64,000 nt of DNA. Source: Escherichia phage vB_Eco_mar004NP2. Below the pieces are notes generated by a model that worked only from the letters and a program-made list of their open reading frames with translations, was not told where the DNA came from and searched no databases. This document shows positions 18,255 through 64,000 of the stretch, piece by piece; positions within the stretch are counted from its first letter, which is position 1; each line of letters begins with the position of its first letter. Both the position numbers and the translations under genes were made by a program. The stretch lies in the sequence record OR896837.1; one strand, 5' to 3'.

Positions 18255-19203
18255 TTACTTATTACGCATATCCATAATCATCTGGCCATCGTAACCAGTG
18301 CCAACCACAGTCTGCGGTACACCACCTTGATACTTCTGAGCACGAATCATTTCAACTTCTAGTTGCTTCCAGCGAATCATCTCAGGAGTAATGGTACGTT
18401 GCAGCGCGGCGTTAGCTTCAGCTTCTTTCTTAGCTGCGTACAGTTTAGCATCTGCGTCGCGTTCGTTAGCAATAGCTTGGTTATTACGAGCTTCACGGTC
18501 TGCTTCTGCTTGTTTAACTTTCTGCTGAGCTTCTTGTTCAACGCGAGCCAGTTCAGCTTTTGCAGCATTAACTTGCTCTTCACGAACTTTGGTATTCTGT
18601 ACCTGTTCCATGATTACTGGTGGCAAAGTAATATCCTGAAGAAACATCTGCTTAACTGTGTAGCCATATGGGCGTGCATACTCTTCAACTTCCTGTTGAA
18701 TTGCAGTTTGCAATTGAGCCTGAATTTTAGCATCAAATAAATCTTGTGCTTTAGGTACAGACTTACCAAACTCACGAATAGTAGACAGTAATTTTTCAGT
18801 TACATATTTGTCTAATGCTTGATCCTGAGTACCTGCATTAATACGGTTAATCGGTGCCTTAGAACCATCAAACTGCAACATAACAGTCAGGTCAACAGTG
18901 GATTTAAACTTATCCTGGCTAGGAACCTGAAGTTTATCTAATTTTTACAGCAATATCTTTTGTACTAAAAGTATCGAAAGATGCAAATGGGTTTACAGGA
19001 TGGAAACCAGGTAATACTGGGTTAGGATCTACTTTACCAAGAAATGTTTGGGTTTTAACCGTACCATCAGAAACAATAGTATATGAATTAAAAGCTAGGA
19101 TTAAACCTGCTAAACCAACTACAGCACCAATCCCCCAACGTTTAATAGTACGAATTACTTTCTGCTCAGAAGTTAGTTCTTTCATATTTTTAGTATTAAA
19201 CAT
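18255..19203 (-). pseudogene. SPFH/band-7 membrane protein, reading frame interrupted (two ORFs, 18934..19203 and 18255..18881)
   Basis: Upstream ORF gives TM anchor plus first SPFH segment; downstream ORF gives the rest plus coiled coil; frames differ by +1 across an A5 run. Confidence 0.5.
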
Positions 19204-36148: not shown

Positions 36149-36240
36149 TGAATGGGATATTTTTATAGCTTAGTCTGGCACTTGGTGTTATATATATGTT
36201 GATACGGTTGAGTATGATACGTTCTTAGAAAGGAACAAAA

Positions 36241-45486: not shown

Positions 45487-46246
45487 ACTGAACTGGAACG
45501 TAGAAGGTGTAACCGAGTCTCTGAAAGCAAAAGCCACTGCTCTGGGTGTTGCTGTAATCTCTCAAGAACAAGTAGCTGCTATCGCTGCTGAACTGGCTGC
45601 TGAAACTGGCAAAGACGTTACCGCTCGCTCTGTTGGCTCTAAGCTGCGTAAAGAAGGTTTTGAAGTACAAAAAGCTAACGAAGTACAGAAATCCCCGTGG
45701 ACTCCTGAGCAGGAAGCTGAACTGGTTGATTTCCTGAACGCTCATGCTGGTCAGTATACCTATGCTGAAATCGCTGCTGCTGTAGCTGGTGGTCAATTTG
45801 GTGCTAAGCAGGTACAGGGTAAGATCCTGAGTCTGGAAATGACCGCCTCTGTTAAACCAACTGAAAAAGCTGCTGCTGTTCGTTCCTTCACTCCTGATGA
45901 AGAAACCGATTTTGTTAATCAGGTTGTTGCTGGGGCTACTATTGAAGCTATCGCTGCTCACTTCGGTCGTAATATCAAGCAGATCCGTGGTAAAGCTCTG
46001 AGCCTGCTTCGTGAAGGTCGTATCGCTGCTATGCCGGTACAGGAAACTTCAAGTGCTAAAACTCGTGAAGATCTGTTAGAAGGTCTGGATCTGGCTAACA
46101 TGACTGTTGCTGAGATCGCTGAGAAAACTGGTAAATCTGAGCGCGGTGTTAAATCTATGCTGTCTCGTCGTGGTCTAGTTGCTAAGGACTATGATGGTGC
46201 TGCTAAGCGTGCTAAACTGGATGCAAAAGCTGCGGCTGCTGAATAA
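45479..46246 (+). CDS. Ala-rich protein with four internal repeats, putative abundant DNA-binding protein
   Basis: Repeated ~50-aa units ending in basic helices; codon usage strongly biased to host-preferred codons unlike neighbours. Confidence 0.45.
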   Translation: MSKLNWNVEGVTESLKAKATALGVAVISQEQVAAIAAELAAETGKDVTARSVGSKLRKEGFEVQKANEVQKSPWTPEQEAELVDFLNAHAGQYTYAEIAAAVAGGQFGAKQVQGKILSLEMTASVKPTEKAAAVRSFTPDEETDFVNQVVAGATIEAIAAHFGRNIKQIRGKALSLLREGRIAAMPVQETSSAKTREDLLEGLDLANMTVAEIAEKTGKSERGVKSMLSRRGLVAKDYDGAAKRAKLDAKAAAAE

Positions 46247-46264
46247 TCTGGTAAATTAAACCTA

Positions 46265-46297
46265 AGGGGAGGGGGCTATGCTCCTTCCCCTTTTTTG
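46265..46297 (+). terminator. rho-independent terminator
   Basis: GGGGAGGGGG...CCTTCCCC hairpin + TTTTTT. Confidence 0.5.
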
Positions 46298-46329
46298 CAT
46301 TTAGAAGGCACGAAAGCGTGCAAAGGAGA

Positions 46330-47802
46330 ATGACCTTGTTTAACGTGCAAGCTGTAGTGTTGAAGATGCTTCTTGCTTCTGAACAGAAGCAAATAGCATT
46401 GGAAACATTCTCAAAACTGCATAAAGATCATTTTAATGACGCTTTCTCCTCAATTTACCAAGCCGTCCAGAATTATTATAAAAAATATAACACAATGCCG
46501 TCCATTGACGCACTTATGCTTGAAGCTAATAGGAACGCCCGCCTTTCTCAAGCTCTAGTCGTCTTAGCTAACACTCAAATTCCAGAAGTGAGCATGGAAC
46601 AGGCACTTGAAGTCCTAGAGGCCGAATATACACAAGATTTATTCCTAAAGCTTCTAGAAACAGATGTGCTTCAAGATTTAACAATGCTGGATCAGGGAGA
46701 AATTCTCAACCGAGTTGCCTCCCTTCACTTAAAATTAGAAGAGAAAGTAACGAATACTGGAAAAGTATTCAACGCAGATAACATGCGTATTTTCCAGAGA
46801 GAAGAAGATACCAAACTGAACTTAATCGCTCTTGGTATTTGTAATGAGTTCGACGCTCAAATTGGTTTAGCTCGCACAGAAACGTTACTGCTTGGTGGTT
46901 GGCGTGGTACTGGTAAATCCATTATCTGTTCAAACATACAGGTTCAGCAATATTTGAATGGAGATATTGCTCCATACTTCTCAATTGAGATGAAAGAACA
47001 TGAAGTATTTAGACGTAATCTAGCCATGTTAGCTGGTGTATCAGCATTAGCAATGCGTAATAATACTCTAGAAGGTGCAGCTCTGTTGAGATTGGCCAGA
47101 ACTAGAGCTAGGATGTTCAACGGGGGTGAGGAGCTTTTCGATAACTTCGTTAAACAGTATACAATGGCTAAGATGAGTGATTTCTACGATATGGAGAGTA
47201 AGCTAATAGAAGGATATGAGCTACATACTCCTATGATTATTGTTTATGACCCTGAGCTGTCCATTACAACAGTTGACGTAGAATTAAATAAATTAGTTGC
47301 TAGATACGGAGATAAAGTTACAGTAGCTTTACTGGACTATATTAACCAAACCCGACTTCCAGACTCTAAAACCATTGATATGTATGACTGGAAAGAACAG
47401 ATGGTTGTCAGCTCGTCTTTCAAATCTATCTGCCAGAAACATAACGTGGCTGGTGTAGCTCCTTACCAGATTGATCAAGATGGTAGAACACGTATGTCAA
47501 AGGGGATTCTTGATTCCGCAGACATGGCTGCTAATCTTAATGCTGCAAAAGCTGATAATGGTCAAGGTGCTATTATGTTTGACTTCGTTAAGACCCGTTC
47601 TTCTGATAGCGTGAAGTTTATGCCTAAAATGAACTGGGAAACCCTGCGGATGGATAACACTATCAACCTAGCAATGGAAGATATATCTCAAATGGAAGCT
47701 GAGTTCGTTATCCCTATTGAGAAGGATAAGCCGGCTCAATCTAAACGTGCTAAGAAAGACAAAGCTGAAAATTCAACAGGTGAACAGGCCAGCGATATAT
47801 GA
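46330..47802 (+). CDS. RecA-fold replicative helicase-like ATPase (DnaB-like)
   Basis: Walker A GGWRGTGKS; directly upstream of and coupled to the primase; start uncertain (ATG 46330 or TTG 46336). Confidence 0.5.
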   Translation: MTLFNVQAVVLKMLLASEQKQIALETFSKLHKDHFNDAFSSIYQAVQNYYKKYNTMPSIDALMLEANRNARLSQALVVLANTQIPEVSMEQALEVLEAEYTQDLFLKLLETDVLQDLTMLDQGEILNRVASLHLKLEEKVTNTGKVFNADNMRIFQREEDTKLNLIALGICNEFDAQIGLARTETLLLGGWRGTGKSIICSNIQVQQYLNGDIAPYFSIEMKEHEVFRRNLAMLAGVSALAMRNNTLEGAALLRLARTRARMFNGGEELFDNFVKQYTMAKMSDFYDMESKLIEGYELHTPMIIVYDPELSITTVDVELNKLVARYGDKVTVALLDYINQTRLPDSKTIDMYDWKEQMVVSSSFKSICQKHNVAGVAPYQIDQDGRTRMSKGILDSADMAANLNAAKADNGQGAIMFDFVKTRSSDSVKFMPKMNWETLRMDNTINLAMEDISQMEAEFVIPIEKDKPAQSKRAKKDKAENSTGEQASDI

Positions 47803-48689
47803 GTAGAATAACAGAACTACTTGATCTGAAAGGCATTGAGTATAAAGACACAGGTGGGGACATCCTCATCTGTTGTCTCAATCCAGATCATGACGATAAA
47901 CATCCAAGTTTGCGTATTGATCCTGAAACAGGTATTATGCACTGCTTGAGTTGTGGCTTCGGTAAAGGTATACCGAGCATTTACCATTATTTTAATGAGA
48001 CTCAGTACCGACAGTCTCCAAGACTATCGCAGGTACGTAAAAAGATTTCAGAGATTAGGAATGGATCTACGAATCTTGCAATTCCTGAATCTGCTTACCT
48101 TTTCGAAGGTGATTTCCGAGGTATAAGTTCTAAGACCTTGAAGAAATATTTTGCTTTCCAACACCAAGCAGATTGGGAGGGCAGAATTGTATTCCCAATC
48201 ACAGATGCTGTTGGACGCAATATCCTATTTTTGGGTCGTTCTATAAACAGTTCTGCCCCTCCTAAATACTTAGTAAAACCAAAACAAGTTTCACCACCGA
48301 TTTTCCCTGTACGATATAATACTCCAGTTCTTATTCTAGTTGAAGGTATCTTTGATATGCTGAACCTAGAGGATAATGGTATAGACTATGCTTCTTGCTG
48401 CTTTGGTACACATCAGTTTACTTCGGATAACATTGCAGATAAGTTCAGTCCTTATATTATTGCTGGTGTAAAAGTTGTTGTTATCTTACTAGATAATGAT
48501 GCTTCTGGTAATAAAACTGCACAAGCATTGGCTAAGCTAATTCGTACAAAAACGCGTTTAACACCTGTAGTTGCTAACTTTCTCCTACCTGAAGGCAAAG
48601 ATCCAGGTGATTTAAACAAAGATGAAATTGATATGTTAGCAAAACGTATTGAAATTTTAGTTGCTGAATCGCTTAAAGATTTGGTATAA
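47799..48689 (+). CDS. DNA primase (DnaG-like)
   Basis: Zn-finger CLNPDHDDKHPSLRIDPETGIMHCLSCG; Toprim EGIFDMLNL...DNDASG. Confidence 0.75.
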   Translation: MSRITELLDLKGIEYKDTGGDILICCLNPDHDDKHPSLRIDPETGIMHCLSCGFGKGIPSIYHYFNETQYRQSPRLSQVRKKISEIRNGSTNLAIPESAYLFEGDFRGISSKTLKKYFAFQHQADWEGRIVFPITDAVGRNILFLGRSINSSAPPKYLVKPKQVSPPIFPVRYNTPVLILVEGIFDMLNLEDNGIDYASCCFGTHQFTSDNIADKFSPYIIAGVKVVVILLDNDASGNKTAQALAKLIRTKTRLTPVVANFLLPEGKDPGDLNKDEIDMLAKRIEILVAESLKDLV

Positions 48690-59478: not shown

Positions 59479-59513
59479 CCCCAGTGGATTTTGTCCACTG
59501 GGATTTTCTTTTA
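59479..59513. terminator. bidirectional rho-independent terminator between early and late genes
   Basis: CCCAGTGGA-TTTTG-TCCACTGGG hairpin flanked by A-rich and T-rich runs. Confidence 0.65.
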
Positions 59514-61283
59514 TTGTGATACTAATTGTACCTTTAATTGCTCAAGCTCTTTCTCTAGATCTTCAATCCGTTTAATAAGATCTTGCACAACATGCATAGT
59601 GTCAAGAAGCATTGGAGTTGTATCTAATTCCTTTTGCTCCTGCTCTATTCCGTCATCATTATAAAATTTTCTAGTTTTTACATAAAGTGGTTCTATAGTC
59701 TCTACTTGCTGAGCAATAACCCCACGTCGGACACGAGATTTTTCATCGTTATTATATACAAAGGATTGGAATTCTAATCCTTTTAATACCTCGATGGACT
59801 TAGTTGCGTCTATAGCCTTAATATCATGCTTTAAGCGAGAATCAGATACAGCATTTAATTGCAAAGTATAGGTTGCTGAAGCACCTGGCCACCAAGAATA
59901 AAAATAAATACTATTATTATTCGGCTGAATTTTTAAACGCACACCAAATTTATTATCATCATCTCCCGCTACCTGCCAACAAGAATCTGCAAATGAGCCT
60001 AAGTCATTATGAATTAATCCAAAATGTGCAGATGTCTTATACCCTGCGGAAGAAGACTGGGAACCGCTCAATATACTATTAAAGTTAAATGTACTACCTA
60101 TATTGACCTCGTTCTGAGAAAGAGTACCTTGTACCCAGCCAGTCTGAGACCACGCCATGCCAGTAACTAATCTAGCTTTAAAACGATCCGTTACAAAATC
60201 CCCATTTATCTACAAGCTGGGCGGAATTCGATTTACCGGTAGATTTATTGTCTATTAGTAGTTCAGTAGAGTAGGTGCCACCAATAGTAGCTTTAGCTCG
60301 TAGTGTACTTACAGCCTCACTACTAGTACCTACTTTATACTCAGATAGTACACTCCCGCCATAAACAGTAGTACCAGTATTAGGTTTGACAGCATCACCA
60401 CTAATAACACTCCACGAAGTCTTTGCAGCCACGAACCCACCAGAAGCACGGATTACCCAGACACCTATAAAGCTGTTTGGAATAATAGTACCTTTTATTC
60501 CATAACGCCCATAAACAGGGTCCGCTAAGTTTGCATCAAAACTAAATCCGTATTGGTTATCAGGATTAACTACGGCGAATGATTTAGATGCACCTCCAGG
60601 AGCGGCACCTAAGCCGTTTTCACCACCAATCGCCCCAATAAGACCAAATCTAGATGAATATCTATTAAGCGCTTCTTCATATGCACCAGCAATAGCGCCA
60701 GGAAAACTACCAGTAATATTGGGTGCTGCAGCTTCTGATATTGAACCAGCTTGACCAGCATCCCCCCCCCCCCCACCGTCACCACGAGCGAATAACCCTT
60801 TGATTGAATTTAGTTGCACACCATTACGATCTGGGACGCGGAAAGTAGTGGTACCATCTCCCGTAGAATATTTCCCACGTTGTCCTACATCTGCTAACCA
60901 AACTGAATCATCTATAGCTCCAACCATTTGTGCATACGCCCAAAGTTCAGGCCAGTCAGCCCTGTTAAGAAGCTGCCCATCAGAAACTACCTCATAAGGT
61001 TGAATATACGCACGGCTATCTCGAAGATGAAAATCCCCACCCCGTAGTTCATAACACCATTCATTGTGGGTCCTACTGTGCCAGTATTAAGTTTGTTCTC
61101 CACCCAACGCTTAGTTGCGGCATCATAGTCACTAACAGGATCTCCAGCAAGAGGGGTAGATCCAATAGGACGCACATTTAGCCATGCTGCACGGTCTGCT
61201 AAGTCACTCAGGTTATTATTTTTATTAAGTGACTCATTTTTAAGTTTTGTAATATCCGTAGGAATTACTGTTTTAGTTACCAT
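59511..61283 (-). pseudogene. tail fiber protein with C-terminal intramolecular chaperone/autoprotease domain, split into three ORFs by two frame breaks
   Basis: N-terminus MVTKTVIP...PLAGDPVSDYDAATKRWV; open frame continues in another phase (HNEWCYELRGGDF...); C-terminal ORF carries the SDSRLK autocleavage-type motif. Confidence 0.55.
60762..60774. repeat. 13-nt C/G homopolymer inside the tail fiber coding sequence
   Basis: Read directly; encodes the Gly run GDGGGGGD on the minus strand. Confidence 0.9.
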
Positions 61284-61292
61284 TATAAAACC

Positions 61293-61571
61293 TTATGCCC
61301 ATACTCTAAGAGGCTGTTCTAGCTGAACTATAAAAGGCTCGAAGGATTCGTAAGTAAAGGATTCATCAAGAATCCTTACATTAATATAATACCCTTCATT
61401 ACGGATGCATCTAGGTTCCTCATCACCTAGCGGAGAGATTTCAGTATAAGTATATCCAATTTCGTCAAGCATTATTTGGTTTTGCAAATTTTCATTAGTA
61501 TCCCACTCTATTTTTAAGAGAAAATCTTTATATGCTGATTTATCCGTGAATTTTAGGATTATATCTCTCAT
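61293..61571 (-). CDS. hypothetical small protein between the two fiber genes
   Basis: ATGA overlap with upstream fiber gene stop. Confidence 0.4.
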   Translation of the reverse strand: MRDIILKFTDKSAYKDFLLKIEWDTNENLQNQIMLDEIGYTYTEISPLGDEEPRCIRNEGYYINVRILDESFTYESFEPFIVQLEQPLRVWA

Positions 61572-63625
61572 ACATACTCCTTCATTTGTCTATCAGTTAG
61601 TTCCTTATGCCAGATTCTAAAGTTTCTAACGTGCCCGAAAAGATGACGTTCGCCCCTAGTTGTTTGTCCTCCAATCCTTATAGTAGCCGTTGATTGTATG
61701 TATCTCCATTCCGTTTTTGTTTCGCTTGATATTCTGGCATTACTTACACAGCAAGTATTGTAATCACTCTTTACTCTCATTCCCATGATCATCTTTTTTA
61801 GTTTTGCATTCTCGTAAACCCTTCTGTTTGATTTACCTATATCGCAATAAGGGAAACCATCATTATCGCCTTCGGCAGATCCGAAAGCAAGAATAATAGC
61901 CGCTTCGGTTTGATGACCTCTGGTATCAAAAACACGTGGCGCTGCACTTGGCGTTATACTCCAGTTTTTATGAGCTTCCACAAGTACTGTAAACGGCAAA
62001 TTGTAAAGGTTGTTTTTTATTGGTAATGTGACCATATCGCTTGCCCGTGTTACTGGAGTCTCTTCTGTAATAATAAACGATGAAGCGCACGCCCCGCCTT
62101 CAACTTGAGGGGTAGCTACCTGTAAGTACTCTCCACCAGAATAAGTGCCAGGTGAAACAGGTGGAGCAATTTGGATCTGAGAGCTAACCATATTATCAAT
62201 AGCTTCAGATTGATATGTAACCTCGAAATAAATCCATCCATTAGATTCTTTCTCCGCTCGGGCGGTTATTCTTGCAGCCCCTACTTCCGTTTTTCTAATG
62301 GACATATCTGTTATATTAAGATATGCATCTGCTAGATAAAAATATGCGGATCCGTCATATCTTTCAAATCTTATACGACATTGTATATTAGCACTATCGC
62401 TTTTTACACGACATGATGTTGTAACATACTTTTCAGTTCCGGTAACATCGACACCTCTTCCTCCTGAAATCGCAGCGATATTCATTGCCGTATTTGTCCC
62501 AATTTTTTCGTCCTTTATTTGAAACCGCCCATAAGTAAATCCAAACTCATCAACACCACTTTCTGTTATAGTTACACTTGTTGTAGCTTCCCACTTAGAT
62601 GGCGTAAGTGAGTTAAGATGATAGTTAGTTCTTTGCCCCTCAATGAGCAAACCATCCTTTTCAAATCTAGGTTCATTAATCCCCGCAACAGTTAATACAC
62701 CTGATTTATTAATATATGTCGCAGTTGATGCACGTGTAAAGCTAACAATCTTGTCACTGGGCAGTGTTATTTCCTCATCACCGACTGTTATTTTTTTTTT
62801 ATAGTCTGGCGCAAAGCCGGTGATCATATCTAGAGAATCGTTAAACGGTATCCATACATCTGGAAGAGGTTGAATGTCGGGGGTAGAATTAGCAGCAGCT
62901 TCTGATCTATCAGCCTCAGTTTTTGAACGATCGGCTTCAGTTTTAGCAGTATTAGCACTATTAGCAGCATTAGTAGCTTGTTTTCCTGCTTCAGTAGCAG
63001 AATTAGCAGCACTAGTTGCAGAATTAGCAGCTTGGTTTTTTAGCGTGGTAGTTTCTGTTATCGCGCTATTCTTAATGCCTTGTGTGTCTGTTTTTAACTG
63101 CGCAACATCTGCCTTTATAGCTGTTGTCTCTGTTACAGCACTGTTTTTAATGGCCTGAGTATCTGATTTTAGCTGCTCAACATCTGATTTTAAGCCTTGA
63201 ATAGTAGTTACTGACTGACTAGCTGAAGTTGCGGAACTAGCTGCGTTATTCTCACTAGCTTTGGCTTTAGTCTCACTAGCTTTGGCTTTAGTCTCACTAG
63301 CTTTTGCATTAGTCTCGGATACTTTAGCAGCGGATGCAGATGTTGCAGCTTGTCTAGCGAATGTTTCTGCTTCATCCCTAAAACCTTTAGAATTGGCAGC
63401 AGACGCAGCAGCATTAGTCTCACTAATTTTAGCGTTAGTTTCGCTAATTTTTGCAGCCGCAGCAGATTTAGCAGCAGCCTCTATAGAAGATACTAACTCA
63501 TTAGCAGTAATAGAGCTAATAGAATTTCCAAGAGTTACTGTGTATCTAGGAAATTTACTAGCAGTAGCTTTAGTATCATCAATATTTAATATTTGTTGTA
63601 CAATAATCTTAGTAGTTATTGCCAT
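61568..63625 (-). CDS. L-shaped/side tail fiber protein (685 aa)
   Basis: N-terminus [18 protein letters not shown]..., repetitive SETNAKASETKAKASE coiled-coil repeats typical of side tail fibers. Confidence 0.7.
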   Translation of the reverse strand: MAITTKIIVQQILNIDDTKATASKFPRYTVTLGNSISSITANELVSSIEAAAKSAAAAKISETNAKISETNAAASAANSKGFRDEAETFARQAATSASAAKVSETNAKASETKAKASETKAKASENNAASSATSASQSVTTIQGLKSDVEQLKSDTQAIKNSAVTETTAIKADVAQLKTDTQGIKNSAITETTTLKNQAANSATSAANSATEAGKQATNAANSANTAKTEADRSKTEADRSEAAANSTPDIQPLPDVWIPFNDSLDMITGFAPDYKKKITVGDEEITLPSDKIVSFTRASTATYINKSGVLTVAGINEPRFEKDGLLIEGQRTNYHLNSLTPSKWEATTSVTITESGVDEFGFTYGRFQIKDEKIGTNTAMNIAAISGGRGVDVTGTEKYVTTSCRVKSDSANIQCRIRFERYDGSAYFYLADAYLNITDMSIRKTEVGAARITARAEKESNGWIYFEVTYQSEAIDNMVSSQIQIAPPVSPGTYSGGEYLQVATPQVEGGACASSFIITEETPVTRASDMVTLPIKNNLYNLPFTVLVEAHKNWSITPSAAPRVFDTRGHQTEAAIILAFGSAEGDNDGFPYCDIGKSNRRVYENAKLKKMIMGMRVKSDYNTCCVSNARISSETKTEWRYIQSTATIRIGGQTTRGERHLFGHVRNFRIWHKELTDRQMKEYV
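62791..62800. repeat. 10-nt T/A homopolymer inside the tail fiber coding sequence
   Basis: Read directly; encodes KKK on the minus strand. Confidence 0.9.
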
Positions 63626-63987
63626 TATCTAGTTACCCCATCACTGATAAATACTTTACCCTCCATTATACGAAAAGAGCTAATAGCTGATCCTATGACA
63701 TCTCGTGTCATAATTATATCATAGTATCCTGCAAAACGTTGGCGAGGGTTATACTTATCTCTCTCTTTGGTAGCTTTTTCACCAATATTATCTACCGCCT
63801 CTACAGGTAAACTTATAGCTATAGCACCTTGAGCAGCATCAATAATTTTAGTAGTAAAAGATGCCAAAGTTTCCGCGTTCTCATCAAGCCCCGCCTTTAT
63901 AGTACCCCTTAGGGAATACCCTGTTAAGTTAACAGGGGTATTTGTAGGTGGATAAGTACTATCATCAACATCTAAGAATTGCATCAT
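63625..63987 (-). CDS. hypothetical late (virion-associated?) protein, possibly truncated by window end
   Basis: ORF directly upstream of the fiber gene; its 5' end lies within 13 bp of the window edge. Confidence 0.35.
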
Positions 63988-64000
63988 TAGACCATAAGGT

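Follow-up and report, generated by a model that had tools for sequence, protein, structure and literature searches.

We analysed a 64,000-nucleotide (nt) stretch of Escherichia phage vB_Eco_mar004NP2 (sequence record OR896837.1; hereafter the window), and in it a run of ten adenines (A10) inside a lateral tail-fibre gene, which is probably a recent, lineage-specific, in-frame slippage expansion, by AAA, of a conserved A7 in a fast-changing fibre locus, and not a regulatory device. The run occupies nt 826-835 of the minus-strand open reading frame (ORF) 61568..63625, which encodes 685 amino acids (aa); it lies in phase 0 and is read as TAT AAA AAA AAA ATA (Y-K-K-K-I), and on the plus strand it appears as T10 at 62791-62800 (CTGTTA TTTTTTTTTT ATAGTC). 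An earlier reading of the window from its letters (the original prediction) had placed an A10 encoding KKK at this position of a 685-aa fibre gene, and its coordinates and codons were borne out.

By its sequence, the window is a T5-like phage, Tequintavirus, of the mar004NP2 group; over this region it shares 99% identity with the T5-like Tequintavirus phages SPLA5b, PMBT29, KS_S14 and an earlier record of vB_Eco_mar004NP2 (NC_048205.1). Alignment with this earlier record and with IrisVonRoten left three additional A's in the window, and the site carried one codon fewer in 16/16 phage genomes in which it was read: TAT AAA AAA ATA (A7) in 12, made up of these four nearest genomes and 8 further T5-like phages, AAAAAG in 3 and AAGCAA in 1. 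Four more contigs from IMG/VR and the ENA metagenomes (2 viral and 2 metagenome contigs recovered with a relaxed flank pattern, an IMG/VR scan with too-strict flanks having found none) had A7 in 4/4. All relatives read (n = 20; A7 in 16, AAAAAG in 3, AAGCAA in 1) were each 3 nt shorter than the window, no out-of-frame allele was seen among them, and in 35/35 phage records matching a 200-nt query over the site the matched span was exactly 3 nt shorter.

The proteins told the same story. The best 120 homologues in a set of 5.8 billion clustered proteins, which spanned T5-like, Seuratvirus-like and Tunavirinae phages and E. coli prophage side fibres, comprised 92 with Y-KK, 8 with Y-KQ and 19 that were incomplete or had diverged too far for the motif to be searched; the single Y-KKK belonged to the window's own protein, WWD13555.1. 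These comparisons indicate that the ancestral state is A7 and that the window alone has the in-frame +AAA. Since every relative is 3 nt shorter and the KKK is unique, A10 is a lineage-specific, frame-preserving expansion and not a conserved element; we found no long tract maintained by selection across the lineage, A10 and KKK being restricted to this one protein among the best 120 homologues. The original prediction had called the site slippage-prone, which stands insofar as the change from A7 to A10 in this lineage is direct evidence that the site can slip. It does not stand in the sense of a maintained or functional slippage site, because A10 is restricted to one genome and the 20 relatives are invariant at 7 or interrupted, always in frame.

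A run-length census of the window returned just two homopolymers of at least 7 bases, T10 and C13 (60762-60774), the next-longest runs being of 6 bases (13 A6 and 22 T6); the earlier claim that A10 and the G13 read on the coding strand set the fibre locus apart thus held across the 64 kb. Whether A10 exceeds chance is a matter of the null model chosen. Dinucleotide-preserving shuffles gave an expectation of 1.29 A10/T10 per window, with at least one present in 58/100 shuffles, so base composition alone leaves the run unsurprising. The window strongly avoids long A/T runs (4 overlapping A7 words, every one from the A10 tract, vs. 39 ± 9 expected), and given this avoidance and the lack of any run of 7-9 bases in the genome, A10 is an outlier against its own run-length distribution. 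The chance of both runs of at least 7 bases landing in the 4.1-kb fibre locus was P = 0.004 (a post hoc figure); moreover, the 685-aa gene holds 5/37 runs of at least 6 bases (1.2 expected, P = 0.006), a count that no other 2-kb stretch of the window reaches.

The lateral-fibre gene and its neighbours

The 685-aa gene encodes a proximal lateral-fibre protein of LtfA type whose distal module is lectin-like, as follows from the N-terminal match to LtfA together with the fold matches of a C-terminal jelly roll. The same protein, residue for residue, is deposited at NCBI as WWD13555.1, 'tail protein [Escherichia phage vB_Eco_mar004NP2]', from a contig of 98,746 nt, and a Pfam search with the 685-aa sequence gave no match. 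Residues 1-237 match DT57C LtfA (PDB 8hqz_d, E = 5e-21) and the N-terminal region matches PHROGs 5481 and 24369 (tail fibre protein), while a match to the RcGTA head-spike fibre (6tb9) covers aa 294-543. The alignment to phrog_5939 begins at aa 265, which puts K276-K278 at the start of the lectin-like module. An AlphaFold monomer model of aa 250-685 had a mean pLDDT of 59, with the first 86 residues, including the KKK, below 50; it was confident for approximately aa 339-509 alone, a predicted jelly roll that was the sole part usable for a fold search, and whose best PDB matches were the Pa193 and E217 tail-fibre chains, laminin-G domains and the receptor-binding domains of clostridial toxins.

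Gene context agrees with this assignment: in addition to N-terminal homology to T5 Ltf and DT57C LtfA, the gene has LtfC as its neighbour and lies upstream of a distal fibre gene with a chaperone domain. The minus-strand order is LtfC, the 685-aa gene, a 92-aa ORF and the distal fibre gene with Peptidase_S74 (PF13884, located in the 215-aa ORF, the 3' segment of this LtfB-like gene), with a dUTPase on the other strand (Table 1), and the synteny of the fibre locus is the same across 15 relatives. The 'tail fiber gene' of the original prediction is therefore fibre coding, but is better described as an LtfA-type proximal lateral-fibre protein that has been shortened by a 111-aa in-frame deletion. 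The 92-aa ORF (phrog_1361) always stood between the LtfA-like and LtfB-like genes, Seuratvirus Dru_SM1 included, and is possibly an assembly or adaptor factor.

Table 1. Position of the A10 tract and of other features of the fibre locus in the window.
Feature	Position	Strand	Description
A10 tract (T10 on the plus strand)	62791..62800	-	codons AAA AAA AAA (K276-K278) and first base of ATA (I279); A7 in all close relatives
LtfA-type proximal lateral-tail-fibre gene, 685 aa	61568..63625	-	aa 1-237, collar-binding and coiled-coil shaft (DT57C LtfA match); ~265-685, lectin/laminin-G-like C-terminal module
LtfC collar gene (lateral-fibre attachment)	63625..64000	-	PF23926 match; runs past the window end
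92-aa ORF between both fibre genes	61293..61571	-	phrog_1361 (unknown function); kept in all relatives
LtfB-like distal fibre gene	59511..61283	-	C-terminal Peptidase_S74 chaperone domain; 589-aa single coding sequence in relatives; ORFs of 98, 249 and 215 aa here
333-nt (111-codon) in-frame deletion junction	63440..63475, ~63457/63458	-	Ala/Ser/Lys-rich coiled-coil repeat shaft, between GCTGC(G/T)GCTGCAAAA direct repeats
G13 tract (C13 on the plus strand)	60762..60774	-	encodes Gly5; relatives G7, G10 or G6
G4 run (G5 in all relatives)	61035..61038	-	window-specific -1 frameshift in the LtfB-like gene
AAA (AA in all relatives)	60205..60207	-	window-specific +1 frameshift, LtfB-like gene back to first frame

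A change of one base in tract length removes the lectin-like module from the protein. With A9 the product ends ...YKKK* at 278 aa, a TAA following immediately, and with A11 it ends ...YKKKNNSR* at 282 aa, while A7 and A13 keep the reading frame. No alternative ORF opens in either shifted frame, both being closed by stops after 0-4 codons, and the shifted frames could hence yield a truncated shaft only.

Lineage-specific changes in the locus and the possibility of error

The A tract is one of several window-unique changes clustered in the fibre locus (polarised against SPLA5b, PMBT29 and NC_048205.1). The LtfA protein has 685 aa, vs. 796 aa in the nearest relatives, after the 333-nt deletion in its shaft; among relatives the shaft is highly variable in length (proteins of 557-808 aa). 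The same gene carries 12 nonsynonymous and 0 synonymous window-unique substitutions, two seemingly synonymous ones sitting at the deletion junction, and their density of 5.8/kb exceeds the 1.3/kb found elsewhere in the sequence compared (Poisson P = 3e-5). The changes include G-to-E three times, G-to-D, G-to-S, A-to-E, D-to-N twice, T-to-N and S-to-R, and 11/12 create an A on the coding strand. We considered a diversity-generating retroelement for this bias towards A and rejected it, as no stretch of the gene recurs elsewhere in the window and no template repeat is present.

The distal LtfB-like gene has changed as well. It carries a -1 and a +1 site 830 nt apart (+1 downstream) that split it into three frame segments (tblastn), and a window-unique -3 indel lies at ~61184. 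Its G tract is G7 in five near-identical phages, including mar004NP2, PMBT29, phA11 and an IMG/VR contig, and is otherwise GGGGGAG in JLBYU40, G10 in SPLA5b, G6 in KS_S14 and G13 in the window. Most of these are steps of one Gly codon; the G6 of KS_S14 is out of frame and the gene is annotated there as two pieces. In SPLA5b, the only runs of at least 7 bases in 66 kb are A7 and G10, at the same two fibre positions as in the window.

We asked how much of this could be sequencing or assembly error, on which account the true tract would be A7 and A10, G13 and the two LtfB frameshifts would all be miscalls. NC_048205.1, of the same phage name, has A7 and G7, and the window carries further homopolymer-length differences. 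In addition, the window-unique substitutions (excluding 46076-48179) are 75% GC-to-AT with a nonsynonymous to synonymous ratio of 45:15, seemingly unfiltered by selection, vs. 47:123 for those unique to PMBT29; this layer looks like errors or very recent mutations, and laboratory mutation accumulation, mutagenesis, a mixed stock or sequencing error may each have caused it. No single context motif of the kind that systematic basecalling error would leave was found among the window-unique substitutions, which have a loose tendency to C/G runs. Against an artefact, both tract differences are divisible by 3 (+3 and +6), an outcome expected from random miscalls 1 time in 9, and the in-frame G10 of SPLA5b, an independent genome, argues that codon-wise tract changes are real in this clade. 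The 1-nt indels outside the fibre locus likewise avoid coding sequence, as real mutations filtered by selection would (5 intergenic, 2 no more than 15 nt from annotated starts and 1 in a 'lipoprotein' gene). Finally, 212 substitutions in 59 kb, recombination-like patches included, and also indels separate the window from NC_048205.1, and with these imported patches it is neither the same clone as that record nor a simple laboratory descendant of it. Taken together, we consider it unlikely that A10 is an artefact.

Several further observations concern the same comparison. Two clearly different genomes share the name vB_Eco_mar004NP2, the window's and NC_048205.1, and a literature search found no paper on a second genome of that name. 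Within 46076-48179, at and within the replicative helicase gene, there are 38 window-unique substitutions (patch class, 39 synonymous and 2 nonsynonymous), and this segment looks like an allele imported by recombination. At 18255-19203, the homologue of a 315-aa 'lipoprotein' gene (NC_048205.1 25242-26189) has a T4-to-T5 frameshift at 18942 and is read in two frames, and none of the three close relatives has the length of the (TA)n microsatellite that lies at 36188 between two Sir2-like gene pieces.

Slippage, switching and recoding

In the sequence of events that we favour, the ancestral A7 would have encoded Lys-Lys within the Tyr-Lys-Lys-Ile/Val motif found where the lectin-like C-terminal module starts, and three adenines were most likely added by slipped-strand mispairing at replication, either in one 3-nt slip or in successive 1-nt slips via non-functional intermediates. 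The +AAA would then have persisted because the frame was kept, in a locus that is presumably dispensable on rough laboratory hosts and that changes rapidly with host O-antigens. The longer run would be more mutable than A7, a ±1 DNA slip being predicted to leave a shaft-only protein of 278 or 282 aa without the lectin module, and tract length may be heterogeneous today. In favour of this reading, the A tract changed alongside other window-unique events in the same 4-kb locus. The known biology also fits a fibre locus under relaxed or shifting selection: the lateral fibres of T5-like phages, which bind O-antigen, are required on hosts that produce it and dispensable on rough strains (PMC10713586), the isolation and growth host of mar004NP2 was the rough E. 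coli MG1655 (PMC6563131), and within days in the mouse gut the T5-like phage 37 acquired nonsynonymous mutations in ltf together with an in-frame deletion in the shaft (10.1101/2023.11.08.566301).

Four points weigh against an expansion of this kind. The length of ten is read from the deposited sequence only; a single +3 slip is much rarer than a ±1 slip, and the stepwise route passes through truncated-fibre intermediates; the coincidence of the two SPLA5b runs with the two fibre sites could hint at something beyond accident; and the data, including the 212 substitutions and recombination-like patches that separate the window from the earlier record, do not fix the selective regime.

On the rival reading of an evolved contingency locus, the A run and the G run would be kept as a hypermutable ON/OFF switch that yields fibre-less or shaft-only subpopulations for bet-hedging. 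The A tract has the structure that such a switch needs (an in-frame homopolymer of at least 6 bases in which ±1 gives the 278- or 282-aa truncation), the only runs of at least 7 bases in both the window and SPLA5b occupy these two fibre sites, LtfA is enriched in runs of at least 6 bases (5/37, P = 0.006), and in T2 and T4, runs of A6-A9 have been shown to act as contingency loci (PMC12633550). Length polymorphism, another feature of contingency loci, is found at the G tract (G6, G7, G10 and G13, with an out-of-frame G6 and a split gene in KS_S14). The A tract shows neither length polymorphism nor an out-of-frame allele in 20 relatives and its long state occurs once; AAA-AAA is the commonest encoding of the conserved Lys-Lys, and with AAAAAG in 3 relatives and Lys-Gln in 1 no constraint for an uninterrupted run is apparent. 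Furthermore, homopolymers are under-represented in the tail-fibre genes of the BASEL phages (PMC12633550). We therefore regard a switch at this site as quite unlikely; the G tract is a better candidate for a real hypermutable site than the A tract. A more elaborate version, which we think very unlikely, is that the mar004NP2 group keeps the A run in LtfA and the G run in LtfB as paired contingency loci that independently switch the two lateral-fibre branches, the window then showing an A locus that had gone OFF (A7 to A8 or A9) and, instead of reverting, had been restored by another slip to A10.

In the tau/gamma system of dnaX, stops lie near the slippage site in the shifted frame, a layout to which the A10 site can be likened. 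A programmed recoding site of this style, with transcriptional slippage or -1 frameshifting on A_AAA_AAA producing a truncated, shaft-only LtfA isoform, would profit from the in-frame A_AAA_AAA heptamer that A10 contains in phase 0 and from the stops within 0-4 codons in both shifted frames. The run also exceeds the ~9 nt from which selection against coding A/T runs is evident in many bacteria and is attributed to transcriptional and replicational slippage (PMC1088944). Conservation of such a site was not seen, the relatives having A7 or an interrupted run without an in-frame heptamer, and neither was a stimulatory structure downstream, a 161-nt fold around the tract being no better than its shuffles (z = -0.02). 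Slippage by E. coli RNA polymerase is biased to poly(T) and poor on poly(A) by comparison; at least 7 T are needed, and a longer run in the case of A (PMC6260861). Ribosome sliding was also considered for A10; it is robust from the published threshold of A11 but yields little truncated product at A9 or A10 (PMC4363877). These observations make recoding extremely improbable.

T5-like phages are transcribed by the host polymerase, and on a run of at least 9 A a small share of the transcripts that this enzyme makes may be frameshifted. A10 may well be a weak spot, then, but it has no architecture of a programmed site and its long form is not conserved. It belongs to the slippage-prone homopolymers of phage genes and does not have the full set of features that marks an evolved contingency locus or a recoding site.

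Known systems and meaning for the phage

Hypermutable poly-G tracts in the receptor-binding genes of Campylobacter phages, with documented ON/OFF populations, are a familiar case of homopolymers in the host-recognition genes of a lytic phage. The window's G tract (G6/G7/G10/G13) is closely similar to these, while its A tract is without such polymorphism. Among the nearest parallels to the A tract are the contingency loci T2 agt (A9) and T4 rIIA (A6), in which a coding A run is likewise truncating upon ±1 changes (Gomez, Barrick & Waters 2025 preprint, PMC12633550). A10 is longer than the demonstrated A9, for which ~7e-4 of reads carried indels and reversion was ~1000-fold faster than in a point mutant (PMC12633550). 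In contrast to these loci, for which alone hypermutation and reversibility were measured, the sole change here is an in-frame +3 and the long state is found in no relative; moreover, the tail fibre is the gene class in which that study found simple sequence repeats to be under-represented. The Thermus thermophilus dnaX and insertion sequence (IS)-element A9 sites of transcriptional slippage (Baranov et al., 2005, PMC1088944) also combine a coding A run of at least 9 with near stops in the shifted frames, but those runs are conserved among homologues and have functional products, whereas A10 is in one genome only.

As regards the fibres themselves, the branched LtfA/LtfB fibres of DT57C and DT571/2 (PMC4728585, PMC10713586; PDB 8hqz) share with the window the N-terminal 237 aa and the order LtfC - LtfA-like - LtfB-like with S74, but the C-terminal module of DT57C LtfA is unrelated to the head-spike-fibre/lectin-like fold of the window, which has the 92-aa ORF in addition. 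Note that the original mar004NP2 paper did not count the counterpart of the 685-aa gene as an ltfA orthologue. Phage 37 is alike in its cluster of nonsynonymous changes in the distal fibre and in its in-frame deletion in an N-terminal Ala-rich shaft (10.1101/2023.11.08.566301); it differs in having a single ltf gene, and homopolymer changes were not reported there.

If the tract is real, this lateral-fibre gene would be unusually easy to knock out by slippage, and lysates of this phage could come to differ in their host range on O-antigen-bearing strains. The conceptual gain from A10 itself is small, as homopolymer slippage in phage genes has already been described and A10 is a single unshared event. 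More informative is the locus as a whole, in which codon-wise G-tract changes, shaft deletions and clustered amino-acid changes illustrate how the lateral fibres of T5-like phages diversify.

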